A stretch of DNA of 64,000 nucleotides from Botryllus schlosseri (Eukaryota): assembly GCA_051294905.1 (NCBI GenBank), contig CM119376.1, positions 992,001 to 1,056,000 on the forward strand, written 5' to 3'. Shown one piece after another: positions 17,371 through 49,540 of this stretch. A program made the translations under genes and the position numbers. The notes below the pieces were generated by a model. It searched no databases, was not told the DNA's origin, and worked only from the letters and a program-made list of their open reading frames with translations. How positions within the stretch are numbered: position 1 is the first letter of the stretch; each line of letters starts with the position of its first letter.

Positions 17371-17829
17371 TCATTGTTCATAATTATCACATCCATTACA
17401 TTTCATTTTATGTATAAGTATAGCAGCTCTCACATCAGAGGGAAAAGTATCATAAAAGAGTTTATCCGTGGTGTAAATACAAAATCCAGTTCTATCAGAA
17501 CAAGGCATTCTTTCCAACACCCATCCTTCGGGTATCACATCTGAGGCAGGATGCAATCCAACACAGAAGACGAACCAACAAAATTTAGCATGTTCATAAT
17601 TTTCAAACAATATCATGCGGGCGATGGATAAATGCTTTTTGTATAGCGCATCAAACAGTTTGTCGGATACTCTCAGATTGCAAATCCTCAAGTAAGGTGT
17701 CATAAATATCTCCAGTTCATCCCGTGTTGTTGCAGCCCACTTGCCAAAGTCTTTGTGTTCATATTTCTTTTCAAAGGAATCAAAGAAAACGTCAAGTTCA
17801 TGCTTTGCTCTAGCAATTTTATCCCCCAT
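17371..17829 (-). CDS. Unknown protein, family A subtype 1 (152 aa)
   Basis: Shares KLFD.LY..H..IAR, W F...LHPA...PE...ER.P with 19521-19976. Confidence 0.8.
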   Translation of the reverse strand: MGDKIARAKHELDVFFDSFEKKYEHKDFGKWAATTRDELEIFMTPYLRICNLRVSDKLFDALYKKHLSIARMILFENYEHAKFCWFVFCVGLHPASDVIPEGWVLERMPCSDRTGFCIYTTDKLFYDTFPSDVRAAILIHKMKCNGCDNYEQ

Positions 17830-17966
17830 ATTTTCTTAATATAGAGAATTTTATATTGATTATTAGACCAGAACTTTCCTTAATAACATTTCCTACACTC
17901 ATATGAGTATAACAACACTTCTAGAGTATTCAATAATTGTGATAAGCATACTATATACATAACAAT

Positions 17967-18461
17967 TTACTGTGCATACATATCAGTCCATTTTCGTGCC
18001 GTCTTCTGATAACTATCATAATCATCCCGATACAGTCTGGCGCTTTCAACATCCATTGGATCTTCTGGGTTAGGGGAAGCCAGCAATGACGAAATTGAGA
18101 CCAACACCTTGCCCATCGTTAAAGCAGGTGACCATTCATTTGCAAGAATGTCAATACATATGGTACCCTTACGGCTTATATTCGGATGAAAAATTTTGGT
18201 CTCAAATTTGATCTTCGGAGGCTTGAATGGATATTCCGTTGGAAATTCGATTCTAAGGAGAAATGTCCCTTTTTCATATGGTGTTTTTGAGGGTCCGCGC
18301 AAAAGTGCTTGCCAAATATAGATATCTGACTCGTCCATCGGCCCTGCTTGCAAAATGACAGGATTTGTTTGAATTTCTTGATCGATCTTTCGCCGTTCAA
18401 CATGTAACCTATGTCTTGCCATTCGGTGTAGATTAATATTATCCAACAAGACTTGATACAC
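17967..18461 (-). CDS. UBE2D: Intronless E2 ubiquitin-conjugating enzyme, UBE2D/Ubc4-5-like
   Basis: GP..TPYE.G.F, YPFKPPKI.F.TKIFHPNI, catalytic Cys in ICIDIL, WSPALT, SLLASPNPEDP. Real start probably MARHRL. Confidence 0.93.
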   Translation of the reverse strand: MYQVLLDNINLHRMARHRLHVERRKIDQEIQTNPVILQAGPMDESDIYIWQALLRGPSKTPYEKGTFLLRIEFPTEYPFKPPKIKFETKIFHPNISRKGTICIDILANEWSPALTMGKVLVSISSLLASPNPEDPMDVESARLYRDDYDSYQKTARKWTDMYAQ

Positions 18462-18483
18462 ACAGAAAGAAAAAAAAATATTA

Positions 18484-19008
18484 TTAATTCAGTCGTTTAT
18501 CCATAGTATACATGGCCCGTGAAAAACCGGCAATAGTTTTGCTAGTAATGTTCCAATCTTCATCAACATTAGCTATAGCCAACACATATCGTAGAAATAC
18601 ATACAAGTAGTATGCAGGGCTCTCTCCAAAGTTTTCTTCCACAATTTGCTCCAGTACTCTTTTGGCGCATTCCAATTGTTCCGCCACCTCATGGTCCCGG
18701 TATAGCCAGACAAGAAAATCTTTCAATACATACTCCATGTCATTGGCTGTCAACTTCGGAAAGTTTTCTATTCTTTCTTTTATTCGTTCATGTACAACTC
18801 CCATCTTTAGCCAAGCAACTCTGCTGTCAGGTATCGTAGGGTATAGACACGGTCTGAACTTGTTCCGATTCAATTCCTTCTTCTGTGGGTCTTTAGGCAC
18901 ATACTCATACTTTTCATGATTAACTTCCAACATGCCACAGTCAAAGATCAAATAAATTATTAATGTCTTAAAATTCTTACACAAAAAAACCCAAACATTA
19001 TTAAACAT
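18484..19008 (-). CDS. Unknown helical protein (149-174 aa)
   Basis: Open frame packed between neighbours in the same orientation; no recognised motif. Confidence 0.65.
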   Translation of the reverse strand: MFNNVWVFLCKNFKTLIIYLIFDCGMLEVNHEKYEYVPKDPQKKELNRNKFRPCLYPTIPDSRVAWLKMGVVHERIKERIENFPKLTANDMEYVLKDFLVWLYRDHEVAEQLECAKRVLEQIVEENFGESPAYYLYVFLRYVLAIANVDEDWNITSKTIAGFSRAMYTMDKRLN

Positions 19009-19119
19009 TCAACGAATCTTAATCAGCAAACCAACTTAATTACACACATAAAAGTTTTTAATTCTAGTTGTTATATTAGATATAGTGGAAAATCTGATGC
19101 AGTATATGTATCATTTCAG

Positions 19120-19515
19120 TTAATCATCTTTCAAACATCCTTTTATCCATTGTTCTGAAAAGCTCTCCTTCAGGGGATGCATACGAACAATATGTTGGTA
19201 CCAAAGAAATTTGGCTTCCTTATAGTCTCCCAGTGTAATAATTGCAATCCTATTATGTTCCTTGATAGCAGCATGATACCCCAGAGCCTTGCCTTGCGGA
19301 GATAATGCACTCCCATAAACTTTGTCAACATACAGCGTCAGCATTCCAACAATGTCATTGGGTCTTGTCATAGCCCATCTTTGCCATCTGTCGGAAATTT
19401 CCACATCTTCTTCATAATATTTACAGAACATGTCAAAATAATATTTCAAGTCGCACACTGCGGATTCATATTCCGTTTGCAATAATTCCTGGTTACTTAT
19501 GGTTCTTCGAGACAT
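19120..19515 (-). CDS. Unknown protein, family A subtype 2 (131 aa)
   Basis: Paralog of 16758-17207. Confidence 0.8.
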   Translation of the reverse strand: MSRRTISNQELLQTEYESAVCDLKYYFDMFCKYYEEDVEISDRWQRWAMTRPNDIVGMLTLYVDKVYGSALSPQGKALGYHAAIKEHNRIAIITLGDYKEAKFLWYQHIVRMHPLKESFSEQWIKGCLKDD

Positions 19516-19520
19516 TCCTC

Positions 19521-19976
19521 TTAATCGCGTAATATAACGATTTTCGAAAAAGCGTCTTCTAAAATTGGAACAGCAACAGTTTCAAATTCTCGAGCATTCA
19601 GAAGTAATGTTGCAGAATCTTTTAATTCCATTTGTGGTAATCTTTCATCCAGAAATTCTTCTGGTAGATATTTATGAGCCGGATGTAATTTTAGAACAAG
19701 TCCAAACCATGTATATTGGGCCAGATCAAAATCTTTTGTAACAAAAACGCGAGCAATATCACTATGTGCGTCATAAAGTTTATCAAAAAGCTTTTCTGTC
19801 ACATTCGCAAAACAATGATGAAGGTATTTCTTTATTAATTGTTTGAATTTTTCCTTTGGGGTATTTTTCCATATCTCAAAATTTTGATGATGGTATTCCT
19901 GTTCAAATTCATCATAGTATTCATTAATTTGTTTCTTGGCTAGCGTAATTTCCCAATTCTCTAATACTCTAGTCAT
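19521..19976 (-). CDS. Unknown protein, family A subtype 1 (151 aa)
   Basis: Paralog of 17371-17829. Confidence 0.8.
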   Translation of the reverse strand: MTRVLENWEITLAKKQINEYYDEFEQEYHHQNFEIWKNTPKEKFKQLIKKYLHHCFANVTEKLFDKLYDAHSDIARVFVTKDFDLAQYTWFGLVLKLHPAHKYLPEEFLDERLPQMELKDSATLLLNAREFETVAVPILEDAFSKIVILRD

Positions 19977-20122
19977 CTTAATACAGAATAAAATACTTTA
20001 AAATCGTATGTTCAATTTTACGAATAATTGATTCATACACGCAAAAGTAACTAGTAACATTATGCATCATACATATGTATCAAGAACATTCATGCCACAA
20101 AATAATAGTCCTGCCTGCTCCA

Positions 20123-21817
20123 TCAAGCTCTATACACCTTTATCTTTTCAAGTATTGTTTCACCACAAATGTTGCATCTTTCGGTATTTGTTGCACATTT
20201 TTCACAACTACATAAATGTCCACAAGGTATGAAAGTAATTTCACTTTTGTTTCTCTTGCAATTTTTGCAAAGCACACTCTCTTGTATTTCTTTCAAACTT
20301 TGCGCGATTTCATCCACCGACATTGTTTCTGCAACTGCTGCTTCTTTCGTTTCTTTGTTGTTGTTCACTTCGTGATTATTTTCAGATATGCTATCGCCTT
20401 GTTGTTGTGTTGTTTTCGTTGGACTGGCGGTAATTGTATTTACTGTCTCCAGTAAGTCCTGAATTATATCACCAGTAGAGAAATGATCATTAGTCTGTCT
20501 ATTTATGGTTCCTTCTATTTGATCTCTCGTAAATCCCATGTCTTCCAGTTGCATCCTGTTTATGTATTGTCTAGATAACCTTGGTCGATTATGGTTCCTT
20601 CGTATCTCCTCTCGTGGTGCATCAAGACATATTGCATTCCTTATCGATGGTCGATTGAGATTGGGATGTTCATCTCTTAGTCGTAAAACGAAATCAATAC
20701 CTTTCATTTGCAAAACATATTCACAACCAGGAAACCACTTTGCATGCTCTGTCCACGGCTCATCATTGTAGTTCCAATTTTGTAATCCTCCGTTGCAGTA
20801 AAAGCATTTCGCCCTGTCCGAATCCCCTAGATAATACATACCCGCTTTAGCCAATTGTTCCGTTGTTGCGAGGATCCTGGGCCATTTTTCATTAAACGAA
20901 GATATTCTTTGCTGTAACGTTGTCATATGCAAATTTATCGGGTAAAGGCAAGGGAATCTTTCCACCAACTGGAGTTGTTCTTCTGGCGATGGATCCGGAG
21001 GTTCTCCCCTATTAGTAGTTAACCTTTCAATTTTTATTTTAAGTTCATTATCTGCCTGATTTCTCTCGGAGTCTGTCAAGGGCATATTTCCTGCATACTC
21101 GTTATTTGCCATTCTGCATTTTGTAAAATGTCTTTTATGTTGTTCAAGGACATTATCAGTGGGTGCCCAATTTCTCAGTACTCCTGAACATGAAAAACAT
21201 TGCGCTCTGTCAAGATTTCCCAGGTAAAAAAATCCCTGTTTTGCCAATTCCCCTACCAAGTATGGAGTAGGATAGGAAGGCCATTTGTCAAAGGTTCTTC
21301 TTCTCTCTAGTTCACTTCTCAAATTTGCTGATCGCAATGAAGTCTCATGTTCTTGGTCACAAATGTTCGCAAACACGGTTTGCGGTAAGGGACACTTTTC
21401 CTCTTTGATAGTCGGTCTTTGCACATTCCGATTAGTTTGCTGACTTCTTGTAGTAAGGTTAAGGTGGCACCTCATTTGTTCAAAAAGGAGCCTCCCTGAG
21501 CAGTTTGAAATAGGCAAGTTATAACCATGTTGTATGGTCACCATGTCACAAGTAGATTTATGCCACTTGTCATCAAAAGGATCGTCTCCAGTGACCCATT
21601 TTTCCACAGATACTCCACAGCAGTAACATCTTACTCTATCTTGAAATCCTGTCCAATAGAAACCCGCAGCGGCTAGATAGCTCGGTATCACAGGAGTTTC
21701 TTTCGAAAAATGTTTGAACGTTGCAAGTCTGTAATGCTCAACCCGGTGATCTCCAGGTGGAATATAAACGCAATTATGTCCAGGAGGATCACGATCTCTT
21801 TTCATCAGAATGCCCAT
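20123..21817 (-). CDS. iap: Intronless inhibitor of apoptosis: 3 BIR + UBA-like + C-terminal RING
   Basis: Three BIRs (R..TF...LA..GFY.G..DR..C..C....W...D....H....C), LEDMGF UBA-like motif, RING CKNC...PCGH...CEKC...CNIC ending KVYRA. Confidence 0.95.
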   Translation of the reverse strand: MGILMKRDRDPPGHNCVYIPPGDHRVEHYRLATFKHFSKETPVIPSYLAAAGFYWTGFQDRVRCYCCGVSVEKWVTGDDPFDDKWHKSTCDMVTIQHGYNLPISNCSGRLLFEQMRCHLNLTTRSQQTNRNVQRPTIKEEKCPLPQTVFANICDQEHETSLRSANLRSELERRRTFDKWPSYPTPYLVGELAKQGFFYLGNLDRAQCFSCSGVLRNWAPTDNVLEQHKRHFTKCRMANNEYAGNMPLTDSERNQADNELKIKIERLTTNRGEPPDPSPEEQLQLVERFPCLYPINLHMTTLQQRISSFNEKWPRILATTEQLAKAGMYYLGDSDRAKCFYCNGGLQNWNYNDEPWTEHAKWFPGCEYVLQMKGIDFVLRLRDEHPNLNRPSIRNAICLDAPREEIRRNHNRPRLSRQYINRMQLEDMGFTRDQIEGTINRQTNDHFSTGDIIQDLLETVNTITASPTKTTQQQGDSISENNHEVNNNKETKEAAVAETMSVDEIAQSLKEIQESVLCKNCKRNKSEITFIPCGHLCSCEKCATNTERCNICGETILEKIKVYRA

Positions 21818-22057
21818 AGTTTCAATTCGGTCATTTCTCGGTGTAATTGCTTTCGATGGAACAGGCGTTCAATAATACAGGTCAAAATGTCAAGATATAA
21901 CCATACCAATACAACATTCTAGTAATAATACATAAACATTCTGTTAAAAAAAAATATCATTATATAAGATTTCTCGAGGTTCCAAATTAGCATTGGTTTG
22001 ATAAATTCCATGGATTGGGTGTAAAGTCATTATTTAATCGTCAATATGTGACAACAG

Positions 22058-22750
22058 TTAATGGAGATGTATGTCCAAAATATAGGAATTTTCCAGATAT
22101 TGATTCATTGACTGGGTTTCCTTATCTACTTTCTTCGAGTATATGTATATATATGCATCCATAACGGAGGTATCAGAACTCAGCAACATATAACCTTTTA
22201 CTCCTAGGTTGGTTTGGCTGTACCAAGTCCATTTGCAATTCGCATCTGTAACATAAGCCAGACTATTTGCACATACTAACAATCTTGTATGGCCCATTAC
22301 TACTCCTCGTATCACTTCATATATTACTCGTCTCATACATTGGGGAGGTATTCTTCGGAAAACTCCCATCAAGGTTTCCGTAATTATAGTCCATGTATCG
22401 TCATCGGGTCGTATCGTCTGTTTACTCCATACTATGAGTCGTTGTCTTGAGGAATCTTTCACAATGGCAGAATCTTGGGAGTCGTCAGAGTCCGTATTAC
22501 TAGAAATTTCGTCCTCCGACGTTTCTCCATGGGGTTTTCTGTCGCCACATGGAAGTTGTCTTTTGTACCAATTATGTTCTTGTTCAAAAAATTTTTTTAA
22601 CATATCCATCAGCAACTTCAGACATCCAGTATTTTTTCGCACGTCGATTTTATCTAGTTGATTCATCAATTCACAAAAAATAGCAGTGTTATGATCCTGT
22701 ACTTCAGATAGATACATTTTATCCCTGTGAATATAACAATAATGTGCCAT
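22058..22750 (-). CDS. Unknown protein, family B (230 aa)
   Basis: RRVIYEVIRGVVM and W..Q.NLGVKGY shared with 25742-26365. Confidence 0.78.
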   Translation of the reverse strand: MAHYCYIHRDKMYLSEVQDHNTAIFCELMNQLDKIDVRKNTGCLKLLMDMLKKFFEQEHNWYKRQLPCGDRKPHGETSEDEISSNTDSDDSQDSAIVKDSSRQRLIVWSKQTIRPDDDTWTIITETLMGVFRRIPPQCMRRVIYEVIRGVVMGHTRLLVCANSLAYVTDANCKWTWYSQTNLGVKGYMLLSSDTSVMDAYIYIYSKKVDKETQSMNQYLENSYILDIHLH

Positions 22751-22970
22751 AACAATAAAAGATCCTGATTCAAGATTTCAATGCATCAAATCTCGATATT
22801 GGATATCATACAACATACATGTAATACATTCACTCACTATGATACAACAATAATAGAAACATTTCATAGGTTTTCTAAACATGTAGATTATCATACATGC
22901 CTCTATTGCTTCCCTAAAGATTCAAATCACTCATCTCTGATGATATTGCACATAGTGACCAACATTGTTT

Positions 22971-23918
22971 TCAATGTTCCAATGTCCTAAAGTTAGGATC
23001 AAGAGCAATTATCTCTAAAAATAGTTGAAACCTTTCCTCCAAGGCCACCCTTCTTTTCCAGAGCCACTCCTGTAAGTAATGAGGAATAAGTGATCTTGAT
23101 ACCCCATTCAGCCTTCTAATAGCAGCTTTAAAAAAATTCCAAGACACCTCGATCAATTGTGTATTTATGCCTTCTGTGGTGACAAATTCGCGATCATGAT
23201 TAACTATTGAATGTTTATAATTCATTCCCAGGCTTTCCAACTTGCGGTAACTGGCAAATGAATCAGTCCATATAGTGGATCCCTCTTTTACGTGTTTCAT
23301 AATTATTTCTGATAATACAGAGGTTTTTCTCCCTTCTTCAGGTACCAATTCTGCAAACATTTCTCGCGTTTTCATATCTATTCCAGCCAAAACCCAGCGT
23401 TGGCGTATTATTCTTCCACGATTAAATTTTCTTTTGGCCACAAACGTCTCATCAATTTGAATTACATGTGATTTACCTTGTGATATTCCCCCTATTAGTG
23501 TACCTCTTCTTTCCATCTCCCCAGAGCATATCTTACGAAGTTTCTTGGTCCAATTCACCATTGTTCTCTTGCTGACGTGTGCTTCAAAAGCTATTTGTCG
23601 TTGAGATACATCTATGGTCCAAAGATAAATCATCATTACAAGTTGGGTGAGTCTTATTTTACTTCCCTCAAATAGCGATCTTTTCCTTATGGACGTGGTA
23701 GTTCGGCACTTTGAAACCGGACACCTCCATCTATATCCATCCATAGTTCTTTTGCATTTTTCTTCATTCATCTGTTGTCCACAATTAAAACATGTTGCCT
23801 TTTGAACAAGGAGTTGCCGTGATCGCAGAAACTTTATACATTTTCGTTCACTTGATATTATACCACATCGAGCAAGATTGAATAGATTTTTTCTTTTTCT
23901 GGATTCTTTAGTCTTCAT
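22971..23918 (-). CDS. IS1595/ISXO2/Merlin-family DDE transposase, copy 2 (315 aa)
   Basis: Zn ribbon CFNC..WRCPVSKC, HTH region, IQIDET, WTDSFASY, NH, TQLIEVSW, YLQEWLWKR; catalytic D, D, E present. Confidence 0.92.
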   Translation of the reverse strand: MKTKESRKRKNLFNLARCGIISSERKCIKFLRSRQLLVQKATCFNCGQQMNEEKCKRTMDGYRWRCPVSKCRTTTSIRKRSLFEGSKIRLTQLVMMIYLWTIDVSQRQIAFEAHVSKRTMVNWTKKLRKICSGEMERRGTLIGGISQGKSHVIQIDETFVAKRKFNRGRIIRQRWVLAGIDMKTREMFAELVPEEGRKTSVLSEIIMKHVKEGSTIWTDSFASYRKLESLGMNYKHSIVNHDREFVTTEGINTQLIEVSWNFFKAAIRRLNGVSRSLIPHYLQEWLWKRRVALEERFQLFLEIIALDPNFRTLEH

Positions 23919-23986
23919 ATTTATTTAAAACTTTATTGTCTTTTCAAAAGTAGTTTCTGTATATACAAACATTGGAAAGTTAAATT

Positions 23987-24541
23987 TCATGCAGGCACTT
24001 TCAAAGTCATAAATTGACAATCGGCTTCTTTTAATGAAATTCCCTGCGTCTTTGCCCATGCGTATATCTGAACTTCCGGAAAGATTATCCACATTATGAA
24101 ATCTCTTTCAGAATCTCCCTTTTTTAGAAATTCCCTCATTTCCGGATTTACTTTTTTTAAAATTGTTACCCAATTTATGCAGATTTCTGCAAAAGCCATC
24201 TGTATAGGTTTTTCAGGGTAAATGCTTCCTGTATAAGTTTCTTCCCACTCATTTTCAACCAGATGTTTCCCAGGCCAATGATTATTACCCGTAGTAAAAC
24301 CATACTTTTGCTTCCAATATTGCAGCCGTGGATTTAATTCGTCGTACATTATGTCACATAAGTGATCCGTTAATGTATATGTTGTCAACAGAAACTTCAG
24401 CGACTTTAATCCTTTATCTATTAGTGTTTCTTTTTGGGGTATCCATATCAAATGTTGTTTTTCCGGATCATCACAACGCAATCCCAAGCACATTTTGATA
24501 CTTTTAGTAATATTTTTACCGTATTCTAATATATTAAACAT
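23987..24541 (-). CDS. Unknown protein, family C (184 aa)
   Basis: NPRLQYWKQ and ERDFIMWIIFPE shared with 27744-28616. Confidence 0.75.
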   Translation of the reverse strand: MFNILEYGKNITKSIKMCLGLRCDDPEKQHLIWIPQKETLIDKGLKSLKFLLTTYTLTDHLCDIMYDELNPRLQYWKQKYGFTTGNNHWPGKHLVENEWEETYTGSIYPEKPIQMAFAEICINWVTILKKVNPEMREFLKKGDSERDFIMWIIFPEVQIYAWAKTQGISLKEADCQFMTLKVPA

Positions 24542-24605
24542 CTTATTATTAATTGAACAGGAAAATACTGAATCAATACCTCAAGATTCCACATTTTCTT
24601 TATAT

Positions 24606-25655
24606 TTACATTAGTTCAATAGTGACTAGCCACACAATAACGGCAAATGTACCTTTTGAATGTATAGTTACATAATGGGATAAACTTTTCATCTCATCAT
24701 AATATAATCTCGATTGTTTGCGCACATGGGGTTTTTTGGTAAACGTTCCATTATTATTTCTTTTCAATTTTAAAACTTCCAGCCTCGGTAATTTTTTTAG
24801 TAGATCATCACTAAGAAATTGGACGTGATTATAACTAAGATCAATAGTATGCAGATATTTGAACGATATATTGGAAGAAAGAGAGAAAAACTTCAAGTTG
24901 TTACTATACAATGTTAATCTCTCTAAATTACATAGTGATTTAAGCACTGTCATTTCAAATGCAATTAGTCCATTTTCGTCCATGTGTAATGTTTCTAATT
25001 TTCTCAATCCTCTGAAGGCCCCATCTTCTATAACTTTTATGGCGTTCCTTGATAAATCCAGTATCCTGAGACGGCGCAAGTGAACAAATGTTCCATTCTT
25101 CAATCTTTTTATCTCATTATTGTCCAGATATAGCTTTTGCAGGTTCTCCAGACTGGCAAATATCGATTCTTCTATCTCTGCCAGCAAATTACTGCTTAAG
25201 TACAAACTTTCTAGTTGATGTAATCCTGAAAAACTTTCCTTTTCAATTCGTGTGATGTAGTTTCGCCTCAAGTTTATCTCCCTGAGTTTTTCATTTTTGC
25301 AGAAGGCTCCTCTTGATATTGTTTGGATTTTATTCCAACCACAATACAACACCTCTACGTCTTTATATTTTTCCAATTGTTCTTTGGTTATTTCCCGTAG
25401 ACAGCTGTCGTTGATGAATATCTTTACTGTGTTCCGACAAGATTTTGCCAGGTATATCTTGTCAGGATCCGGAATCCTTGTATAACTCGAATGGTCGCAC
25501 CAAAGTACCAAATTGCTTCCTTGCATGCATTCCGGGTATAACATGGTTCGTCTTTCATTAATCGTACATTTCTTTTGTTCTATTGTTTCCGGATAAATAG
25601 CATAACACATGCCCAGCCATAATACTAGTAGTTCCACTCGATTCATTTTACTCAT
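24606..25655 (-). CDS. Secreted or anchored leucine-rich-repeat protein (349 aa)
   Basis: Signal peptide, Cys-capped N-terminus, 9-10 24-aa LxxLxLxxNxIxxIxxxxF repeats, hydrophobic C-terminus; intronless. Confidence 0.9.
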   Translation of the reverse strand: MSKMNRVELLVLWLGMCYAIYPETIEQKKCTINERRTMLYPECMQGSNLVLWCDHSSYTRIPDPDKIYLAKSCRNTVKIFINDSCLREITKEQLEKYKDVEVLYCGWNKIQTISRGAFCKNEKLREINLRRNYITRIEKESFSGLHQLESLYLSSNLLAEIEESIFASLENLQKLYLDNNEIKRLKNGTFVHLRRLRILDLSRNAIKVIEDGAFRGLRKLETLHMDENGLIAFEMTVLKSLCNLERLTLYSNNLKFFSLSSNISFKYLHTIDLSYNHVQFLSDDLLKKLPRLEVLKLKRNNNGTFTKKPHVRKQSRLYYDEMKSLSHYVTIHSKGTFAVIVWLVTIELM

Positions 25656-25741
25656 GAATTAGATAACCCACTTTGTTACTCTATACCTTCGAAAAAGTGT
25701 CCTTTGTAAGTCAAAATCTTATTTACATTCGTTGTCATTAC

Positions 25742-26365
25742 TCATGATTGTTCCGGTATTATAGAGTCAATGTTCACACTTTCCCCTTCGTAGGGGTAAG
25801 GATGTATTTCTATACGTCTTATCCTTTTTGTTCGCCAATGTATTGAACTTGAATAGCCTTTTATGCCCAAATTATTCTGACAATTCCATTGTTCCATATG
25901 TGGCGGATCTTTACAAATTTCTCTCTCCTGGTACACGTCCTTTGTTATATTAGTGTTTGTAAGTTTCATCACCAGTCCTCTAATTAATTCATACAACATG
26001 ACTCTTCTTCCCAAAGAGGTGTATTCCTTTGCTCTTATTTCAAATATCTCTTCTACCACATGATTGAATTTATTAAAATTTTCTTCGGTTATTTCCTCAT
26101 CTAGTGCTGCCTCTTCTAGGCCATTGTCTGTTTGTTTAACCCAATCAACTCGGTCCGTAAGCAATTCCCATATTCTTTCCTTTAACTGGTATCTCTCATA
26201 CTCGCTGTCATATTCTTTAAGATTCAATAGGTCCAACTCGTCATATACATCGTACAAAAGACACCAATTTGATGGATCGTAACCTTCAATATAATCAAAA
26301 TCTAACATTCTTTTTTCAAACAAAATAGCAATTTCGCACAATTTACCATTTTCAGGATATAACAA
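25742..26365 (-). CDS. Unknown protein, family B (207 aa)
   Basis: RRVMLYELIRGLVM and W..Q.NLGIKGY shared with 22058-22750. Start uncertain. Confidence 0.78.
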   Translation of the reverse strand: MLYPENGKLCEIAILFEKRMLDFDYIEGYDPSNWCLLYDVYDELDLLNLKEYDSEYERYQLKERIWELLTDRVDWVKQTDNGLEEAALDEEITEENFNKFNHVVEEIFEIRAKEYTSLGRRVMLYELIRGLVMKLTNTNITKDVYQEREICKDPPHMEQWNCQNNLGIKGYSSSIHWRTKRIRRIEIHPYPYEGESVNIDSIIPEQS

Positions 26366-27743
26366 TTCTCAAGACTTATATAATTACTTTTACTTTTCAC
26401 TCATAACTTATCAAGTATACTCCATTTATCAATTCATTAATCACCCAATACTTATTAGGCAATAAATCTCTCCCCCCCACAAGGGCAATATAATCATTTT
26501 GTAATTTTTTATTTTCTGGTTTTTATTTATATAATTTTTTTCTCATTAAGATTTTATCTCGTATATAGTTTTTATCATTCGGTTTTGGTAATAATTTTAT
26601 CAATTTTTATGATCTATAAACATAATTAGACATTTTATTTTTTTGAAGATTTTTTTAGTGGGGAAAGTTACACAACATGTCAATTGAAACATTATTAAAA
26701 AGTAATATTACTCATCATCCCTGCCTTCCCTTCCATGAAAAATATTTAGACACAAGTATCTCTGAATGACAAACTACTCAATTCAAGGGTTATTTATACA
26801 GAGTTGTTGATAACAAGTTATTACACAACTGTGTCTCATAGAGACCATCAGAGGAAGGGTGCCATGAGACAGAGATGTGAGTAATTTTCAAAATGTTATT
26901 TTACAAAACTATTACATAATCAAATATTGGATAAAATACTAGAGGTTGAGTCCATTATTACGCATGTTATGTACAGTGCAATAAAGAATTTTCATAATCT
27001 TAAAAATATTATAATAATCAGCAATAACTTAAATAGCAGCAAATTGGTATGAGGCTCATACAAGGAGATTTGGCAGAGCGACAATTTTGGGTGAAACGGA
27101 AAAAATTACGCTCACGTCAGTATTTAAAAAATATAATTCGATTAGCATAACATTTAAGTATAAGCACGAGGCGATTTGTGATAGTATAGGTGGTCTGGGG
27201 CCATTACAGACTAAATTTCAACACGAAAATTGCAGCCAAAAATACATACATAACATTTAATATTATGGGAGACAAACACCGTACAATTCTTCATAATTTA
27301 CAATAACAAGTTCCTCTCGAATTTAAAAAATTTTTGCAATAAAGGTAGGTCGATCTTGCATTCAAGTACTCAAGTTCTCATAGTCCCCGGGATGTCATTC
27401 TAGGGGAGGTGATAGCGGGAACAATCCCAGCGATTGATCAATGTATCGGAATCTTTTAATAAAAAGGGAAACTGTATTAATAACTCTGAGTAAATATATA
27501 TCGTAAAATACAGGTATATAGTTTCCACTTTTGCTAATCTCAAGTTTCGCTATACCCGGCTTCTATACTTTTTCCGTTAAGTTTGACCTTTGGTAGTGGT
27601 GCCGAATTGATAAGTTGTCCTAAACCACCACCGGTCAGCCCTAAATAATTTAGTTATCATGGCTTGTCTAATAGGCTAGCCCTAAAAGTCCAGATCAATC
27701 AAGACAACTTCTAGATCAGACTAATAGTAGCTTTATTTTCAAA

Positions 27744-28616
27744 TCAGCCCATATTACCACCAGAGACAGCATGGGGTCCGTCTACACTGGGTCTCCGTAA
27801 AACTATCATTTGGGTCGGAGCCTCTAGTTTGTTTGGAAACCTACTGTCTCTACTGGTTGAAGACTCAGTATCAAACAACGATGTAGTTTCCGAATTGGTA
27901 TTTTTAGCTAATTGTTTGTCTCCCTCTTTTTTTAACGAGTTTTCAAAGATTGATTCCGACACTTGGTCAACCGGTAGAACAAAAACGCCTCCCACATAAC
28001 CAAACGTGCTCGTGGACCCGTATGTAAATCTCCATTGTTCTAGATTTCCCCCAAATAGGAATTCAAATTCTGCGTCCATCCGACATCTCGTAAAACAAAA
28101 TGTTCGCATGTTTTTTGCCCCCCGATATTGTTGCAACAGGAGAGCTATGGCGGTTATTATCGCTTCTGGATATAACACATAAAGCAATATATGTCCTTGA
28201 TCTCTTTCGGTGTTTTGAGCTAGTCCTCTGTGCATGCTACAAGCCTCTTTCAAATAGTTATGGCATAATGTCATAAGTTCCAAAATCTGTCCAGTATTCT
28301 TGAAATACGGTTTTACGTGCCTCATAAGATAACATTGTTTACATTCACCGACCCCTACCGGGTGAAAAGGCTTTCCTATTTTTATCCAGTCCTCTTTGGT
28401 GTACATACATTGTTGCCAATATTGTACCCTTGGATTGTCCCGCTCACAAGTGCCGAACAAGAGGCTCATCAAACGATCCCGAACCGGCGCAGTTTTTATG
28501 GTTTCCATTACCATCTGCTGCCTTTGCGTAAGATCGAACTGCATTGCCCACTCGTAGACAACCTTGTGATCCGTATTAGGGTCGCACAATAGCCCGTAGC
28601 ACATTTCTTTCTTCAA
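27744..28616 (-). CDS. Unknown protein, family C (290 aa)
   Basis: NPRVQYWQQ and ERDQGHILLYVLYPE shared with 23987-24541; Ser/Thr-rich tail. Confidence 0.78.
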   Translation of the reverse strand: MKKEMCYGLLCDPNTDHKVVYEWAMQFDLTQRQQMVMETIKTAPVRDRLMSLLFGTCERDNPRVQYWQQCMYTKEDWIKIGKPFHPVGVGECKQCYLMRHVKPYFKNTGQILELMTLCHNYLKEACSMHRGLAQNTERDQGHILLYVLYPEAIITAIALLLQQYRGAKNMRTFCFTRCRMDAEFEFLFGGNLEQWRFTYGSTSTFGYVGGVFVLPVDQVSESIFENSLKKEGDKQLAKNTNSETTSLFDTESSTSRDSRFPNKLEAPTQMIVLRRPSVDGPHAVSGGNMG

Positions 28617-28789
28617 TTAGTTCACTATTTATAACTCTAGAATACAGAATGTTTCCTCCTTTATTCATACAACCCTCAGTAAATTGGTTCATATTGTAAA
28701 TCAATATGAAACAGAGAAAATACATTGGTTAAATTTTTAATCATACAACCTTACCAGTCATGTGAGTCAAACAATATGCTAGAATTTAT

Positions 28790-29302
28790 CTAACCATCAT
28801 CATGATATGATGTTGTAGGTTGAATTTGAGCGGTAGGTGGCTGTTGCCGAAACATGATACTGCCAAAAGATGTATACGTCCCATCTGACATCACATTGCT
28901 ATTATGCGGCAAGTCGTGGCTCGTTGAAGGTGGCGTCAGTAAGGGCGTCAAGAAAGGACTACTTGTTGATGTTGAGGAGCTGGTCTCTATTCTTCTATTC
29001 TGTTTGTTTGGGGCAGATTTTCTTTGTGAATATGGTTTTACTTTTGCTACCTCTCGATTTTTGACGTGTTTTCTACGATAGTCATTTCGCCATGGCCACT
29101 CTTTAACTTTTTCATTGTTTGCTCCCATCCCTTCGAAGAAGGACTCCGCATAATGTCTAGTTTGATTCTTAATGTCCTCGAAAAAATCATTCCATCTTTG
29201 TAATCTCTCTGTTTTTTTCACGCCTCGAAGTTCCTCATACCATAGTTCGATATTTTCAATAGATAGCTCCCATAATTGTTCTTTAGTTATTGAGGCAGAC
29301 AT
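28790..29302 (-). CDS. Unknown protein (170 aa), helical N-half, basic and Ser/Pro-rich C-half
   Basis: ATG-started ORF co-oriented with the array; no recognised domain. Confidence 0.65.
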   Translation of the reverse strand: MSASITKEQLWELSIENIELWYEELRGVKKTERLQRWNDFFEDIKNQTRHYAESFFEGMGANNEKVKEWPWRNDYRRKHVKNREVAKVKPYSQRKSAPNKQNRRIETSSSTSTSSPFLTPLLTPPSTSHDLPHNSNVMSDGTYTSFGSIMFRQQPPTAQIQPTTSYHDDG

Positions 29303-29819
29303 TCTTTAATTTACGACACCGTGTTATTTTTACACCTTAAAAATAATAGTGTTTCTTTAAGCCGAGATTATTGTAAGATATCGTTAATGATATATATAAA
29401 CATTGAATCGTGCTAACTCTTTATTAATCTTGTTTGGGGTTAATTATTCCTTTACCGGGTGAAGAAAAGTGTTATCTTTGGCCACTTGTCAGCCTAACAA
29501 TTCTTGATTTTCTTAACTCAGGGCCAGTCCGAAATTGCCAATATCAAGAATAGATTGCACTGATTGTGAACTTGCAAAGTCAAGCAAAAATTATATTTGT
29601 TTGGAGGTGATGACTAAAATATCTATTCCGACGTATTGGCAAATCCATCAGCCAGTCACATAATGGTAAATTTTTATACACTACCATAAAGCAGAATAAT
29701 TTGCACCAGCTTCATCAAAAACAAAATTTTCACAAGCTAAACACAATATTTTGCCACACGTTTCCTTGTTTTTAATACTGCTGCCCATTTTATGACCATG
29801 GAAAAACGGCCAATTTATT

Positions 29820-30155
29820 CAGACTGAGCCTAACTATACTCGCGATTTCGGAACAAGATGTCGTTGAACATGTGTGACCTTGCGTTTGCGTTTGCGGTAA
29901 TATCTCTGACTATGAAACCTAGGTACGGAAAGATTGACGCATGTTGGCTTTTGTTATTAATATGGCCATGCGCCACATAGCCTGATCCGCGTAAACTCAG
30001 AATAGCGATATACGGTAAGCTCGCAACAATGCCAAGTTATAATATCATTGGTCTATGAACTTCAAAAGCTTTTCGCGCTTCGCGCGGTAGTGGCATGCAC
30101 AGTATTTCGTCAATCGAATGTGACCTTCGGGCTGGAAAAGATTGGCCAGCCTTGA
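29820..30155 (-). mobile_element. Diverged fragment of the host hAT MITE family (cf. 5772-6110) inside the element
   Basis: Reverse-complement similarity to 5772-6110, e.g. CGCGCTTCGCGCGG, TTCGTCAATCGAATGTG, TTGGCCAGCC, ATGAAACCTAGG. Confidence 0.8.
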
Positions 30156-30420
30156 CTAATTCAAACTTTTATTTTGTATCACATACCATCCTAATTGTTC
30201 TCTCTCTCTTAAAATCTGCTAAATAACCTGTCATTATTCCATGGTTACACAAGAATTCTCTTTTTCAAACGACAACACAGTCGTCCACAGTATTTAATTG
30301 TTTCACTATGAGACACAGAAAACATAACATATCTTGTAACAGTCGCAACATAATTAATGTACATTCACGATTTTGCTGATCACATTAATTTGTACATTTT
30401 GATCACACAGTTTTCCAATT

Positions 30421-44200: not shown

Positions 44201-44662
44201 ATGTATTGAACCAAAGTTATTTTTTCGACGATATGTTGTGGTTCTGGTCAAGGCTGCCAACGTAATATCGGGAGATATTCTTGATAGTTTCCGATTGCAC
44301 CCGCATTCTCTTTCGTATTGTCTAACATCGTTCCAATACCTCTTGTCAGACCCCGAGGGTGCAAATAACTTGTACAATTGATCTTGGCTAGCTCGTGTTG
44401 GACCAAATTTGGGCGTCTCTTCGTATATTGGAAAATTATTTTCCGTTTCACCTATTGGCCAACTCTCGTTTAATTTGAATAGACGATTAAGGCGGATGTA
44501 TCTGAGACCTTGATACCGGAACGTTGTCCATCCTGTAAGATTAAATGCTAACCTCACACTCATAGCAGATAGGGGCAATAATTGGCCATGAGTTTGAAGA
44601 TATCCTCGGTGTAGTGTTAAGGCTACTGCCAGCACAATCCATAATTTAAGATAACGATTCAT
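41264..44662 (-). CDS. Type I membrane glycoprotein: env-SU paralog + Tyr/Asp-rich segment + mucin stalk + TM (1132 aa)
   Basis: Signal peptide; YWNDVRQYERECGCNRKLSRISPDI aligns with env YWTSVQEFERTCLCQRRLGQITPNI; Thr/Ser-rich stalk; TM LIFAVCVTIMVGCMYLCYA; basic tail. Confidence 0.88.
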   Translation of the reverse strand: MNRYLKLWIVLAVALTLHRGYLQTHGQLLPLSAMSVRLAFNLTGWTTFRYQGLRYIRLNRLFKLNESWPIGETENNFPIYEETPKFGPTRASQDQLYKLFAPSGSDKRYWNDVRQYERECGCNRKLSRISPDITLAALTRTTTYRRKNNFGSIHTWKYVVGREARGTMAVPRVILRMISPNATPQVTIHQLLTVYKLSVMNILAQYATVTARCQQRSEAILGWRVNKVEFNVCVQGEANQIQCLGCSFFTDDLAVNILSRDFVIMEIDNSIRASGTGTQEAYSYSQWPAGVKLPRLHHDIVWLKARNETGPRERPANFDGHTWFRLRIYALREHLNNETQRIMGKRNFPTMLQGSIECERKKNQKVCRNSIGSLKTALAFKEVLYDPYTNQPVYADHSNGHLQIASPRPTGQESPLKAWPKSLPNCKQPGRLGEFILTASFKNYGQNTRHMDYYLARLGMHYIEVTKRRLRRLSLPIYKMRRKLGSLDRSITGKEMESLSQALRSALTPQKLSRINEELLSYMSTRKLMEVQFHDIRIFQPNVVYTATICAGILVYTPYAYKDNSKIRTNSKMPLSTAESITTKAESYEGTTRGVSPSSETGVWFNFAPVVTTPETTMTGVKTITIAEGNVRMTNQYDTNYYNYDYIEGYDEGFSYAGYDNNTSFQDSGNYYYNYYDEDGEYDGSLKRGAIPVAYTTNSTNIIKTAMTLPMMETPISTKNTQYTIELTTDTTISTPRTSAHTLDNITTALSTTTITPYTRGLTSAIVISGTTSSTPLPAILTTVHSSRENNTSPRPTASITTLLTTVKTVSEQKRRRTSPINIFTTVEPPTAISTQMDAQKSISIATTGATFSESELITRVPMKRGVNARLQWNTMTYQISTKNGEMLDSLSVPIKKTPQITQIPKSYIQLNHHTNQLKDTTPPRAHFNMMFDASQVATTVETHQYFVTSKSRSNTEPDNLNKKQDLQVRTKSTSMLSSGYYQSDPTSVSKNDVVRSWKSISNSALSSITPSIEEEGKATLSIPHTLPTARYDRLDRITFDFYGRLHKLHEIEQGYASGKIIVDINNRKDLEGSLNNHALIFAVCVTIMVGCMYLCYAKCRRVAAKTYLREVIRRNNRKTYITAVTLHEKLR

Positions 44663-44749: not shown

Positions 44750-47293
44750 CTACATTCTTGTCGATTTGGCCGTTTTAACGGGGTTCGATGCCGATGATAT
44801 GTACATTGTCAATTGAGTATTCGTGTTCCGCCGTTGTACCTTAGGTTTTAACTTGGGACAGCAAAGACTGCTATAACGACAGCCACAAAACAAGATGATC
44901 CCAGCCCCCAATATCAAAATTACTGGAATTAGAACAGGCCCCAGGCCAGAAAAAATTCCGCTCACTCCCTTATTGAATATTCCTCCGACCGCACCTAATC
45001 CATCTTGTAGTAGATCTCCTGTGCTATCTTCTACTGATTTTATCAAGCTTCCTGCACCGTGTGCCATATCTTCTATCGTTTGGCCCAAGTTATTCATAAA
45101 TTCTTCTCCTCCAACAAATTCGAAAGGCTTAATTGTAATATTCTCATATCGCCAATCAGAAATGTTCATGTACACACTCTTATTCAGATCTTCTCTCCAA
45201 ACTTGGAGACCCAAATCCACCTTCTGTTGGGCTTGATCTAGACTGATACGATTAGCACGTAGTTCCACTCCAATGTCATTCGTCTCATTGATGTAAGCGT
45301 CTCTATAGGCTGTCAATTGCTGAGCGTGTTCTTTTATCCGCAACGTTCCTTGTCGGATTTTCGTAAGATATATCTTGCTGGAATCAAATATCAGCTTACC
45401 AGTTAGGTTTGCTAGTTCATCCAAGACCAACCGATCAAGGGCCAGTTCAGCTTCGTTCATTTCCTTATAGTTTTGAAAAGAGGTCAAAGAAGCTGTGGCT
45501 TGTCGTACTATCATTTGTCGGTTCCTTTCTATGTACTTTTCCATTAGTACAAGTCGTTTATTTGTCAGTGATGTCCTTACTTCCATAGCAGCAATCGTTT
45601 GATCCAGTTTCTGTTGTTGCGCTGTCTGTAGTAGCGAGAGCTCGTTAATCTTTCTTCCTAGTGCAGTGGATCTCTGCGTGGCCTGTATCATTCTATTATT
45701 TATTTGTCTGCTAAGATCCATCGTCTCTTCATGTAACTGGGATGAAACTGTCGCAACGACGGCGATCGTGGATATTACAGCGAATACCAGACATAGCAGT
45801 TCTGCCAGGAACCTTTTACGCCTTCTACGCGTACCCCGTTGTGCGGTATTACTTGATACCAATTCCCCTTTAATTTCTATTGGACCCCCTGGAAAGCGTG
45901 GTCGGTTTAGCTCCGGATCAAAATGAACATGGTCCCAAAAGGCTGCCTTCAAAATGGGTCCTCCTACAGGGTCGCGGCACAAATCCTGGTTATGTGATAT
46001 TCTATTTTTACATGCTTCATCCGATGCAGTAAGAGAGGGGAAGAATTTCCACATAGGCCTGGGAAAAGGTACCCATGTTGATGTAGATGCCTTAAACCTA
46101 GTCGGCACACCATCAAAAAGGTTATTCCACCTCATGCCCTGATTGCCACGATTAGCATACACACTGTGATCCAGATTTGGAAGAGCCGGTTGTATCCATT
46201 TTACTCTGGGAGGAAAATTTGTCGTTGGTAGATCACCCCATAGAGTGGTATTCATTCCTGGCCAGAAGTTGCACGAATGGGCTATTACACGACCCCTTGG
46301 CCATAAGTGCTCAAACCAGTCCTGATTAATCCATCCCCCCTGAGCCCGGCATGGTATCAATGGAGTGCGCACATACTGCACCCTACTTACTTTAGTCATT
46401 ACTATTTCTTGGATGATTATATCCGCCTTATTTGGTTCCAGGGCAGAGATAACTCCTCTAAAATCACACCTTGTACAGATTCCCAATATGACCCCTTTCT
46501 CCCTATAGGAGTACAACTGTTGCCAATAGTCGCCCCGGTAGGCTCTTTTTTGTATAAGCTGCCAGCATTGTGTAAAACTATTGCTACTGGCATTATACTT
46601 ATTCAATTCATTTATTTCGGCTCTGTCCCGGTCTCCCATAGGCTCTTGACGGCATGATGCTTCAATAGCTGAATAACTTTCGAACAGTCTCATCATAATT
46701 AATTTAAATTTGGTAAGAGCAAACATAGTGTAATTCTTGCCAAGGTCATGAAACGACATGTATTGGTCCCCACTCCAGAACCAACGAATCCTATAATACC
46801 CTATTGGACGCACGAACATGTTCGTTTGTTTAAGGACATCATAGGAAATATTGGGCGTGATTTGGCCCAGGCGCCGCTGACAGAGACAGGTGCGTTCAAA
46901 TTCTTGTACGCTTGTCCAATATCTTCCATGTGGAAACGCCATTTGTTGTAATGAAAATCGCTCAGCCACTACGTAACCAAATGACTTACTGTAAAACAAC
47001 TCAGGCCGTCTATATACATGTCGCTCCGCCGTTTTATTGAAGATGCTCATCAATTGATAGTCCTCCCATTGTGTATCATTTAAAGTGACCCATCCATCAG
47101 GCAGTGATCCTCGTAGTTCACCCAGCGTCCCCTGAGTGAAAGACCGTGCCCTACTTGTTACAGGATCTGCGAGTCCGTGCATGCCTTTCGCCGCCGTATG
47201 CAGCACCACATCAGACGTACAAATGATACCAACAAGGATAGACAGAGAATAAGGAAGGAGGTCCATGGCACAGACAGTGGTGGTTCTCGCCAC
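44750..47293 (-). CDS. env: Envelope / class I fusion glycoprotein (~840 aa)
   Basis: Signal peptide from ATG 47266; many NxS/T sites; furin site RRRRKR (45812-45829) directly followed by hydrophobic FLAELLCLVFAVISTIAVVATV; heptad repeats; Gly-rich membrane-proximal region; TM LIPVILILGAGIILFCGC. Confidence 0.9.
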   Translation of the reverse strand: MARTTTVCAMDLLPYSLSILVGIICTSDVVLHTAAKGMHGLADPVTSRARSFTQGTLGELRGSLPDGWVTLNDTQWEDYQLMSIFNKTAERHVYRRPELFYSKSFGYVVAERFSLQQMAFPHGRYWTSVQEFERTCLCQRRLGQITPNISYDVLKQTNMFVRPIGYYRIRWFWSGDQYMSFHDLGKNYTMFALTKFKLIMMRLFESYSAIEASCRQEPMGDRDRAEINELNKYNASSNSFTQCWQLIQKRAYRGDYWQQLYSYREKGVILGICTRCDFRGVISALEPNKADIIIQEIVMTKVSRVQYVRTPLIPCRAQGGWINQDWFEHLWPRGRVIAHSCNFWPGMNTTLWGDLPTTNFPPRVKWIQPALPNLDHSVYANRGNQGMRWNNLFDGVPTRFKASTSTWVPFPRPMWKFFPSLTASDEACKNRISHNQDLCRDPVGGPILKAAFWDHVHFDPELNRPRFPGGPIEIKGELVSSNTAQRGTRRRRKRFLAELLCLVFAVISTIAVVATVSSQLHEETMDLSRQINNRMIQATQRSTALGRKINELSLLQTAQQQKLDQTIAAMEVRTSLTNKRLVLMEKYIERNRQMIVRQATASLTSFQNYKEMNEAELALDRLVLDELANLTGKLIFDSSKIYLTKIRQGTLRIKEHAQQLTAYRDAYINETNDIGVELRANRISLDQAQQKVDLGLQVWREDLNKSVYMNISDWRYENITIKPFEFVGGEEFMNNLGQTIEDMAHGAGSLIKSVEDSTGDLLQDGLGAVGGIFNKGVSGIFSGLGPVLIPVILILGAGIILFCGCRYSSLCCPKLKPKVQRRNTNTQLTMYISSASNPVKTAKSTRM

Positions 47294-47395: not shown

Positions 47396-48322
47396 TCACA
47401 ATTGTGGTAATATAGGAGACCCATCAAATTTGTCAAAATTATACCGTGGATCATTGTGTATAGTGCGCAGGAGTGCCAAGAATCGGTCAGTCTTTTGATG
47501 TTGACGTTTCCACAAAAACTCCCCTACGTAATCAGCCAAAAGGTGACGTGCTAAACCACGAGACCTATGTAAATGATATTTAAGCTGTCCCCAGGCCCCC
47601 TCGATTTCATTAGTACAAAAAGCTGTCCGAGGGTCCTTAAACCACCGGGAGTGGTCCACTACACCGTGTATATAACCCTTCCCCCAGCTTTCTATGCCCC
47701 TGTAGGAAGGGTAGGCATCGGTTAAAATTGTGGACCCCTCTGCCACATTTTCTACTATTAACTTTCGAAATACTTGAGCAGTCCTGTCAGAAGTTATTTC
47801 GATGAACATTTCTCCGGTGGCTTTGTCTATTCCCCCGAACGCCCAAATGGCTTTAACGGCTGGTCCTTTGTCTGAGGCAACCCGACGCTTAGCCAGATGC
47901 GTTTCATCAATAACTACACAACCGCCTTCATTTCCCAAACGTCGCTTATTCCTGTGAAATTCGGCCGTACAAAGCTTTCGCAATCGGCCACACCAGGTGA
48001 CCGTTGAACGTTGGCTAATCTCGGCTTCATGCGAAATTTGGGTTTGCAACGCGTCATGGGACCAAAAGTAGAACAATATTAATAATTTGGGAAGTTCTAC
48101 CTTGCTTCCCGCGAATATCGAGTGTTTCCGTATAGTCGCCGTAGTGTCACAGGGGTTGCATCGCCACCTAAATCCATCATCGCCTGTTGACGTAATTTCC
48201 TCTTTCATTATTTTTTTACATCGCTTGCATTTCATCCTTCGCACCAACAACCCGTGATTTCTCAGAAATATCACACAATCCCGTGTGTTTAGCAATGCAC
48301 CCGATTCGACCAAACTCAACAC
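47396..48322 (-). CDS. IS1595/ISXO2/Merlin-family DDE transposase, copy 1 (next to right end)
   Basis: CKRC..WRCNPC Zn ribbon, VIDET, LTDAYPSY, DH, TNEIEGAW, YVGEFLWKR. No in-frame ATG at the homologous N-terminus; probably spliced from ATG 48575-48577. Confidence 0.92.
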   Translation of the reverse strand: MLSLVESGALLNTRDCVIFLRNHGLLVRRMKCKRCKKIMKEEITSTGDDGFRWRCNPCDTTATIRKHSIFAGSKVELPKLLILFYFWSHDALQTQISHEAEISQRSTVTWCGRLRKLCTAEFHRNKRRLGNEGGCVVIDETHLAKRRVASDKGPAVKAIWAFGGIDKATGEMFIEITSDRTAQVFRKLIVENVAEGSTILTDAYPSYRGIESWGKGYIHGVVDHSRWFKDPRTAFCTNEIEGAWGQLKYHLHRSRGLARHLLADYVGEFLWKRQHQKTDRFLALLRTIHNDPRYNFDKFDGSPILPQL

Positions 48323-48409
48323 ATTGTATGTTCTTTTCCGCGTATCTGCGCAAGTAAATAATACGACATGTGGCGTCGATCAACTCCCCATCGTCTTTGG
48401 CGGATCAAA

Positions 48410-48423
48410 CCCCCCTTTTTCTT
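48410..48423 (-). promoter_or_regulatory. Polypurine tract (plus-strand primer candidate)
   Basis: Minus strand AAGAAAAAGGGGGG, matching the MLV-type PPT AGAAAAAGGGGGG. Confidence 0.65.
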
Positions 48424-48611: not shown

Positions 48612-48634
48612 CGGGCACTTATTTCACAAGTACC
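48612..48634 (-). repeat. Right terminal inverted repeat of the giant element
   Basis: Ends in CC, followed by TSD GAATAATT. Confidence 0.85.
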
Positions 48635-49540
48635 GAATAATTCATTGAGTTCTATTGGACTGCCATAAAATACAATTCCCAAAATTGCCATTCGACAAAA
48701 TGTGTCCTAATTGAGCATTCCCGGAGTGGCTGCTTCGTCGATGTATAAGCCACATCGATTTAAATCCTTGTTTCTTAGATTCCGAATGCATATTATAGCC
48801 GACGCATGGCATTTCCTTATAAGGAAATATCTTCTTTCTCCATAGCGCTGTGCCTTTCTACGCATTCTGAACAGATGCTTGACAGACTGACATTAACAGG
48901 GTCAGCTAACAGCTATACTCGCATTCACCAGTTACTCTTAATTCGGAGACATCTTCTGATCGGTGAATAAGGTCCGGTATCAGTCCAACTCTAGCATCGG
49001 CGCATGGGTGGTAGGGGAGATGTGGTACCGATGGATCACTGGGTCCGAAAATACAGCAATAGTTTTCTATGATCATGTTGTCGTTACGCTATGTTAGTTT
49101 GATCAGCGATCCGTATTAAGGAGAACTTTCTCGAGCCACGTTTTGGACAGGATTAGGTAACGTCTTGTAGATTTATCGGCTGTTTTATGTTTTTGGGGGT
49201 CAAAAGTAAATTTAGTTACGGGGAGAATTTTTCATTTCATTGCAATATGATGAAGGGGCCAGCCACGACTTTTGTAGCAAATTAAAGGTCATATATAAGG
49301 TTCCATTTTAGCGAGAACTTCCAGTAACATTGGATCAATAAATGTGAAGAATTTTACTGAATTCAGAAATTTTTGTGTTAGGGTACCGATGATACAGCGC
49401 CCTAAAAACATCATGGTTATATAGACTTTTATAACATGAGCTACAGTTTCTATCATGGCAGAAAAGATGCTTAGATATCCTCATAGAAAACTGAATAATG
49501 TTTTTTGTCAGTACAGAGTCTATTCTTGAGTCTCTAGATC

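Follow-up and report, generated by a model that had tools for sequence, protein, structure and literature searches.

Background

To our knowledge, reverse-transcribing viruses either integrate by means of their own integrase, between LTRs, or remain as circles without one. The polypurine tract (PPT) that defines U3 follows env, and a position ahead of env is where a central PPT would lie. The PPT of MuLV has been printed as AGAAAAAGGGGGG (PMC3407194). In the Caulimoviridae plus-strand primers lying far from the PBS are normal, and the portion of PMC4462095 drawn upon here describes, for CaMV, how the RNA is terminally redundant and its poly(A) signal conditional, and how gaps occur both at the PBS and at two stretches of polypurine. 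The Kuafuorterviruses, as summarized in PMC11673190, possess an integrase, two LTRs and IADD/VADD/LADD motifs, and DNA transposons of the Merlin/IS1595 type are described as having TIRs that start with GG and range from 24 to 462 bp, together with TSDs of 8-9 bp (excerpted from PMC8101967).

The 64-kb stretch of DNA analysed here, the whole of which is referred to as the window, contains an element that is a Merlin-bounded, permuted, integrase-less retrovirus-like unit. A first-pass annotation had drawn attention to a purine tract near the upstream end of that element, and had read it as a gammaretroviral PPT at the ‘wrong’ end and as independent evidence for a circular permutation. The tract itself is probably ordinary, and the novelty lies in the element that carries it.

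The element and its termini

The element around the tract spans 39,979 bp, and is bounded by imperfect, GG-ended TIRs and an 8-bp target duplication. Its principal features are as follows.

48635..48642, no strand: upstream copy of the 8-bp TSD, GAATAATT, a direct repeat
48612..48634, minus: upstream TIR, begins GG, 17/23 identical to the other end; depth step and loose end to another flank at 48634
48410..48423, minus: purine tract AAGAAAAAGGGGGG, then TTTG; letters read directly
48346..48365, minus: probable 3' splice acceptor, pyrimidine-rich, with its CAG end at 48346; splicing predicted from sequence
47396..48345, minus: IS1595/Merlin-type DDE transposase (Pfam PF12762; relatives 74-76% identical)
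44750..47266, minus: env-like gene 1, with a signal-like start, basic cleavage-like site, hydrophobic peptide and C-terminal membrane-like segment (features from sequence)
41264..44662, minus: env-like gene 2, S/T-rich, membrane-protein-like (features from sequence)
30919..41263, no strand: gene-poor 10.3-kb block, probably nested host repeats
16758..30918, minus: accessory ORFs, all sense, comprising an LRR protein, a second IS1595-type transposase, IAP, E2 and small ORFs without assigned identity
22971-23918, minus: second IS1595-type transposase, in the accessory block
20123-21817, minus: IAP, in the accessory block
17967-18422, minus: E2 ubiquitin-conjugating enzyme, in the accessory block
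15601..15619, minus: PBS-like 19-mer, begins TGG; position from sequence
12477..15293, minus: gag-like ORF containing a CCHC zinc knuckle (E 5e-4, slightly below the curated threshold)
8929..12384, minus: pol, with protease-like motif, RT, RNase H and Tpt1/KptA domain, and no integrase (domain search)
8739..8749, minus: alternative purine run GAAAAAGGAGA, directly 3' of pol, near the AATAAA at 8774; a candidate only
8656..8678, plus: downstream TIR, begins GG; from sequence, read support covering the upstream end only
8648..8655, no strand: downstream copy of the 8-bp TSD, GAATAATT, a direct repeat

Within the window, 17 or more of 23 positions match in only 4 of 49,352 such pairs, and the sole GG-ended pair is that of this element. 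The upstream end at 48634 was confirmed by reads of three public runs (X1, X16 and X5): depth in X1 was 803-3032 inside that end and 108 in the first bin outside, depth in X16 (from another organism) was 13-40 inside and 3 outside, and in X5 a contig runs from 48634 into another flank. Although these depths cannot be read as copy numbers, it is clear that the family is multi-copy. From the TIRs, the target duplication and the multi-copy ends we infer that insertion would have been carried out by the encoded transposase.

No LTR-like or R-like repeat was found in the element, nor any R-like repeat shared between the surroundings of the tract, those of the PBS and the end of pol, and no internal copy of either terminus was present beyond chance. 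A DIRS-like scheme is ruled out by the lack of an R-like repeat and of such internal copies. Because the PBS is internal and terminal redundancy is lacking, reverse transcription of the whole element would need either a circle or tandem copies; no TIR-to-TIR (circle) junction occurs among 19 of 323 loose ends listed, contigs being apt to drop rare forms.

Several further observations concern the upstream end and its surroundings. The upstream TIR (48614-48634) self-folds into a 9-pair hairpin. In X5, depth reaches 400-640 over 48187-48630 compared with 0-93 over the transposase and env, X1 being flat; this excess might reflect a short transcript, open chromatin or deleted derivatives. Differences to other copies across 46300-49600 favour sense-strand G-to-A in X1 (54 versus 24, p 0.012), and the bias has no significance in X16 or X5. 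A separate transposon at 51561-55090 displays perfect 23-bp TIRs and an 8-bp TSD, with a DDE_1 transposase ORF at 49978-51573.

Gene content and the lineage of pol

All of the non-overlapping ORFs of at least 130 aa in the element (21/21) lie on the sense strand, on which the order is transposase, two env-like genes, accessory genes, PBS-like 19-mer, gag and pol. In alignment A5 the acidic residues of the terminal transposase are invariant (DET, TDA and N-x-x-E motifs, with D, D and E kept), and env-like gene 1 gave no Pfam match. The second, internal IS1595-type transposase shares 38% identity with the terminal one, and no TIR was noted alongside it. A nested repeat at 29528-30154, separate from the gene-poor block, matches 5772-6415 outside the element, and a 77-nt non-coding repeat, 79% identical between its copies, occurs at 15872-15948 and 17252-17328; both copies follow small accessory ORFs, and one lies 250 nt ahead of the PBS. 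The PBS-like 19-mer at 15619 is presumably of the tRNA-Ile type, and that of the relative L003 presumably of the tRNA-iMet type; no tRNA gene was found in 6 loci, and the 64-kb window contains no Rfam match or tRNA gene. Around the PBS the RNA folds with mild stability (z -1.94, 20 shuffles). AATAAA occurs at 40 sites, one of them (8774) directly 3' of pol, and the RNA run X24 supplied only 18 partial reads.

The absence of integrase extends across the pol clade, in that the domain was found in none of nine close relatives scanned (four of which are fragments) and in all four of the more distant controls. The RT profile of the clade scored 195 bits with Ty3, 180 with 8r0s, 119 with foamy virus and at most 98 with MLV-type chains, and the best single-sequence PDB match of the RT was again 8r0s, which we take to be the CaMV RT. 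The label ‘gammaretroviral’ is therefore a poor fit, since the clade scores higher on Ty3 and on the caulimovirus-type enzyme than on MLV. With the RT nearer to Ty3 and the caulimoviruses, and with the Ty3 PPT lacking a G tract in the excerpt that describes it, there is no lineage reason for an MLV spelling of the tract. The features by which an element would be assigned to Gammaretrovirus or Retroviridae (an RT closest to the MLV type, an integrase and LTRs) are all missing from this one.

The Tpt1/KptA domain that ends pol (8929-9420) is common to P0006, P0007, P0008, P0011 and L002; in other relatives the same C-terminal slot holds a dUTPase (P0021) or nothing (P0013). In a metagenome scan, two of 79 loci (L002 at 56% identity and L003 at 34%) were taken as clade members by identity and E-value, and gene order was compared in these, the other 77 loci (21-31% identical) falling outside the comparison. 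No transposase match occurred in the loci of that scan, and L002, which ends 77 nt after pol, gives no information on ends. Among viral contigs no relative of pol, transposase or TIR was found, a single 26% match apart, and prokaryote genomes gave no match beyond one weak one of 27%.

The purine tract and its setting

The tract AAGAAAAAGGGGGG is 14 nt long and contains five A, and its last 13 nt correspond exactly to the MuLV PPT; like a retroviral 3' PPT, it is a sense-strand purine run with a terminal G tract. The first-pass annotation was thus right that a MuLV-like tract is present, although the string that it quoted, of 15 nt and six A, fits only with 2 mismatches. Its placement of the tract about 210 bp inside the upstream end agrees with the measured 212-225 nt from 48634, the span of about 32.8 kb that it gave from tract to PBS measures 32,791 nt (PBS at 15619), and the tract does not stand ahead of a 3' LTR, the element being without any LTR-like repeat.

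How unusual such a tract is depends upon how narrowly it is defined. The MuLV 13-mer appeared in 0/200 Markov simulations of the element, A4G6 in 14/200, and eight purines followed by G5 in 30/200, such that a generic purine-G tract is not rare by chance (7-15% of simulated elements). In the non-coding ends, 673 nt in all, eight purines and G5 have a chance of 0.9%, six purines and G4 one of 8%, and any run of 14 purines one of 22%. The tract is the sole occurrence of eight purines and G5 in the whole window, and one of seven G-rich purine tracts on the sense strand of the element, three of which are non-coding (48423, 39846 and 26478). The tract exceeds chance modestly, with no correction for its having been picked out after the fact. 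The TTTG that follows it and the CAAAAT ahead of the PBS form a 4-bp inverted match, reminiscent of retroviral ends, and from the last accessory gene to the PBS no purine run exceeds 9 nt. RNA folding of the left end that holds the tract is not unusual (z -0.86).

Similarity of the transposase to its relatives begins at the CAG at 48346, 64 nt after the tract; the first in-frame ATG after the acceptor is at 48235, and coding similarity starts about 110 nt earlier than that. Because the similarity starts at a probable splice acceptor, the tract would lie in an intron or an outron. No exon supplying the transposase start was found; that it lies across the joined ends is speculation.

Conservation of the tract in relatives and close copies

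Conservation was assessed by a proxy at the protein level, in transposase relatives that retain upstream read-through and are known only as proteins. Two of the five relatives reach the tract (P0158 and P0159, both 74-76% identical to the terminal transposase of the window), P0157, P0160 and P0161 stop short of it, and a second search added one further, short relative. The upstream read-through of P0159 is DNA-homologous to 48495-48346 (score 56.4, compared with 22.3 for the best of 60 shuffles), and has R-K-T-A in place of the R-K-R-G of the window, so that two G positions of the tract must be C. P0158 also has R-K-T-A, with identical spacing from the transposase anchor; its best local alignment is weak (22.5 against a null maximum of 18.5-20), and lies upstream of the tract without covering it. 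Under any possible coding, the purine run at the tract site in these two relatives is at most 8 and the G run at most 2. The downstream read-through of P0159 matches the transposase-env spacer of the window (E 9e-4), and P0159 probably belongs to the same kind of element.

A lack of conservation had been named beforehand, together with the absence of a plus-strand discontinuity at the tract, as counting against the PPT reading, and by this protein-level proxy the G run is absent in both of the readable relatives. Among close copies, G5/G6 length varies, with one G missing in 13% (X1), 55% (X16), and 7% and 15% (X5) of depth; no substitution inside the tract occurs among 40 of 309 rows listed, an absence that says little because conservation at that distance extends over the entire left end. 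Since the G run is lost in both diverged relatives, since the splice acceptor follows 64 nt on, and since the RT lies nearer to Ty3 and the caulimoviruses than to MLV, the tract does not supply the independent support for circular permutation that had been claimed for it. Non-conservation does not prove non-use, as primers of the caulimovirus type could, by analogy, turn over between families.

A shorter purine motif, AGGAGAGAG at 48443-48451, seems better kept than the flagged tract: at that position P0158 reads N-R-R-E and P0159 reads N-M-R-E-S. Loose ends at 48454 in X5 and X16, in diverged subfamilies, lie beside this motif.

Gene order and a relative in canonical arrangement

The 34%-identical relative L003 carries a PBS-like site (1846), then gag, a pol without integrase, and an env of 1337 aa, which displays weak similarity to env-like gene 1 (E 6e-7, pairwise) and env-like gene 2 (E 5e-4, pairwise). 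A transposase and an LTR repeat are both absent from L003, and between pol and env it has no purine run that reaches 10. The whole of this integrase-less gag-pol-env unit (1713-12400) has a 27-bp perfect inverted repeat 30 nt ahead of its PBS. In the window, env stands at the opposite end of the element from pol. This arrangement supports a gag-pol-env order opened between pol and env, with Merlin ends and the transposase at the break. The circular permutation model put forward by the first-pass annotation thus draws support from the PBS-gag-pol-env order of L003, the one relative from which the permutation is read, and not from the tract.

The same comparison limits what the tract could do: the L003 order puts it before env, where it would be at most an internal plus-strand primer. 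A 3' PPT lies after env, directly upstream of a duplicated 3' LTR; here there is no LTR, and the tract precedes env. The further proposal that the 32.8 kb from tract to PBS constitute one unduplicated U3-R-U5 is not supported, given the position of the tract before env in the L003 order and the 10.3-kb gene-poor block within the span, and a ‘32.8-kb U3’ is formal only. Nor need the tract mark an LTR, since the plus-strand primers of a circle-replicating element need not mark any (PMC4462095, in the portion cited above).

Interpretation of the tract and of the element

On balance, we favour the interpretation that the tract is a look-alike of the MLV PPT, namely a family-specific spelling of the non-coding, Merlin-type left end, in an intron or outron that precedes the transposase; this sequence would neither set a U3 nor be required for plus-strand priming. 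Its host would be a multi-copy element in which an enveloped retroelement lacking integrase is fused to a Merlin transposon, the opening lying between pol and env. The exact MuLV 13-mer, the TTTG/CAAAAT inverted match and the absence of tract substitutions among the rows listed all speak against a look-alike. Some of these same features would suit a working internal plus-strand primer, of the caulimovirus or central-PPT type, that produced a gap (not an LTR start) on a circle while other families used other runs. An exact MuLV-type tract, non-coding, on the sense strand and with a 0.9% chance within the ends, in an element whose 21 ORFs are all sense and whose clade lacks integrase, agrees with such a role, as does CaMV, on whose 8-kb circle plus strands are primed from two stretches of polypurine (PMC4462095, as excerpted). 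The best single-sequence PDB match, to a caulimovirus-type RT (8r0s, presumably the CaMV RT), points the same way. We nevertheless consider a working primer unlikely, given that the G run is gone in both readable relatives, that no TIR-to-TIR junction appears among 19 of 323 loose ends listed, and that an RNA of about 30-40 kb would be needed, running past 40 AATAAA sites of which one is directly 3' of pol. That the tract is a 3' PPT in the literal sense, with everything as far as the PBS a single U3-R-U5, is very improbable: the PPT-like letters, the TTTG that follows, the CAAAAT before the PBS and the lack of any purine run better than 9 nt in the interval from the last accessory gene to the PBS are set against a relative in which env follows pol (so that a U3-defining PPT is expected after env), the absence of an integrase to use att ends, an unconserved tract, and a span of which at least 10 kb is gene-poor.

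The look-alike interpretation of the tract is compatible with more than one cycle for the element. It is possible, if somewhat doubtful, that the element is a DNA-only giant Merlin transposon, which carries gag-pol and env as cargo expressed from mRNAs of their own, undergoes no reverse transcription over its full length and needs no PPT; this agrees with a look-alike tract, and differs on the cycle. TIRs, an 8-bp TSD and a transposase suffice for insertion, a gag-pol mRNA could terminate at the AATAAA at 8774, and there is neither terminal redundancy, nor an internal copy of an end, nor a junction among the 19 of 323 loose ends listed. An intact RT-RNase H across a clade without integrase would, however, be hard to retain without a reverse-transcription step, and a PBS is retained upstream of gag both here and in L003, in a strict one-strand order. 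We tentatively entertain, at rather less than even confidence, an enveloped animal virus of pararetrovirus-like habit, which would proceed through transposase excision, a circle, an RNA of tens of kb, tRNA-primed reverse transcription, and re-insertion between pol and env by a Merlin transposase in place of an integrase. The element would be excised and its ends joined into a circle; reverse transcription of a longer-than-genome RNA would start at the PBS, and the plus-strand primers, which would differ from family to family, might include the tract at 48410-48423 as one internal primer; and the circle would be re-inserted at the joined ends. The integrase-less clade, the kept PBS and the one-strand gene order favour this cycle, and the lack of an end-to-end junction (19 of 323 loose ends listed), the 40 AATAAA sites and the RNA length count against it.

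Comparison with known systems

No description of such an element was found in the openly accessible literature searched, Repbase reports and supplementary files excepted; that a transposase integrates a pararetrovirus-like circle is plausible, and undescribed in that literature. If true, an enveloped virus that is stored in circularly permuted form and relies on a Merlin transposase for its insertion would represent a third way, beside integrase-driven insertion between LTRs and persistence as a circle, and its RNA template would be at or beyond the largest known (that of Burro, about 30 kb with LTRs). Dropping the tract as evidence keeps the permutation model honest.

With the MuLV PPT the tract shares 13 identical letters, the sense strand, and the 2 nt and TG that follow (PMC3407194, in the part describing that tract). 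It differs in not lying before a 3' LTR and in being unconserved, within an element that has no integrase and whose RT is not gammaretrovirus-like. The Caulimoviridae, and CaMV in particular, resemble the element in the absence of integrase and LTRs, in one-strand genes and in a tRNA PBS (the tRNA type here being presumed); the element differs in its animal host, its env-like genes, its roughly fivefold larger size, and its probable TIR/TSD insertion by a transposase that it encodes. The circle and the terminally redundant RNA are features of CaMV, and are hypothetical in the present element.

Merlin/IS1595 transposons, in the description of PMC8101967 available, share with the element GG-ended TIRs, an 8-bp TSD (seen in one copy) and a DDE_Tnp_IS1595 domain, while the element is 40 kb long, carries gag, pol, env-like and accessory genes, and has TIRs alike at only 17/23 positions, at the short end of the range. 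Invertebrate gag-pol retroelements are represented as well by Kuafuorterviruses, Ty3/gypsy and Burro, the last being, in the excerpt that describes it, a giant LTR element of about 30 kb with env. Kuafuortervirus membership was considered and ruled out, the pol of the element having YIDD, with no integrase and no LTRs. Teratorn, a combination of piggyBac and an alloherpesvirus, provides the parallel of a gene set of viral origin that a DNA transposase bounds and inserts (PMC6431247 and PMC5601938, as excerpted), differing in that the viral partner here is reverse-transcribing and the transposase is of the Merlin type. In its overall organization the element resembles a Teratorn-like logic, with Merlin ends and caulimovirus-like absences, outside both Retroviridae and the Kuafuorterviruses.
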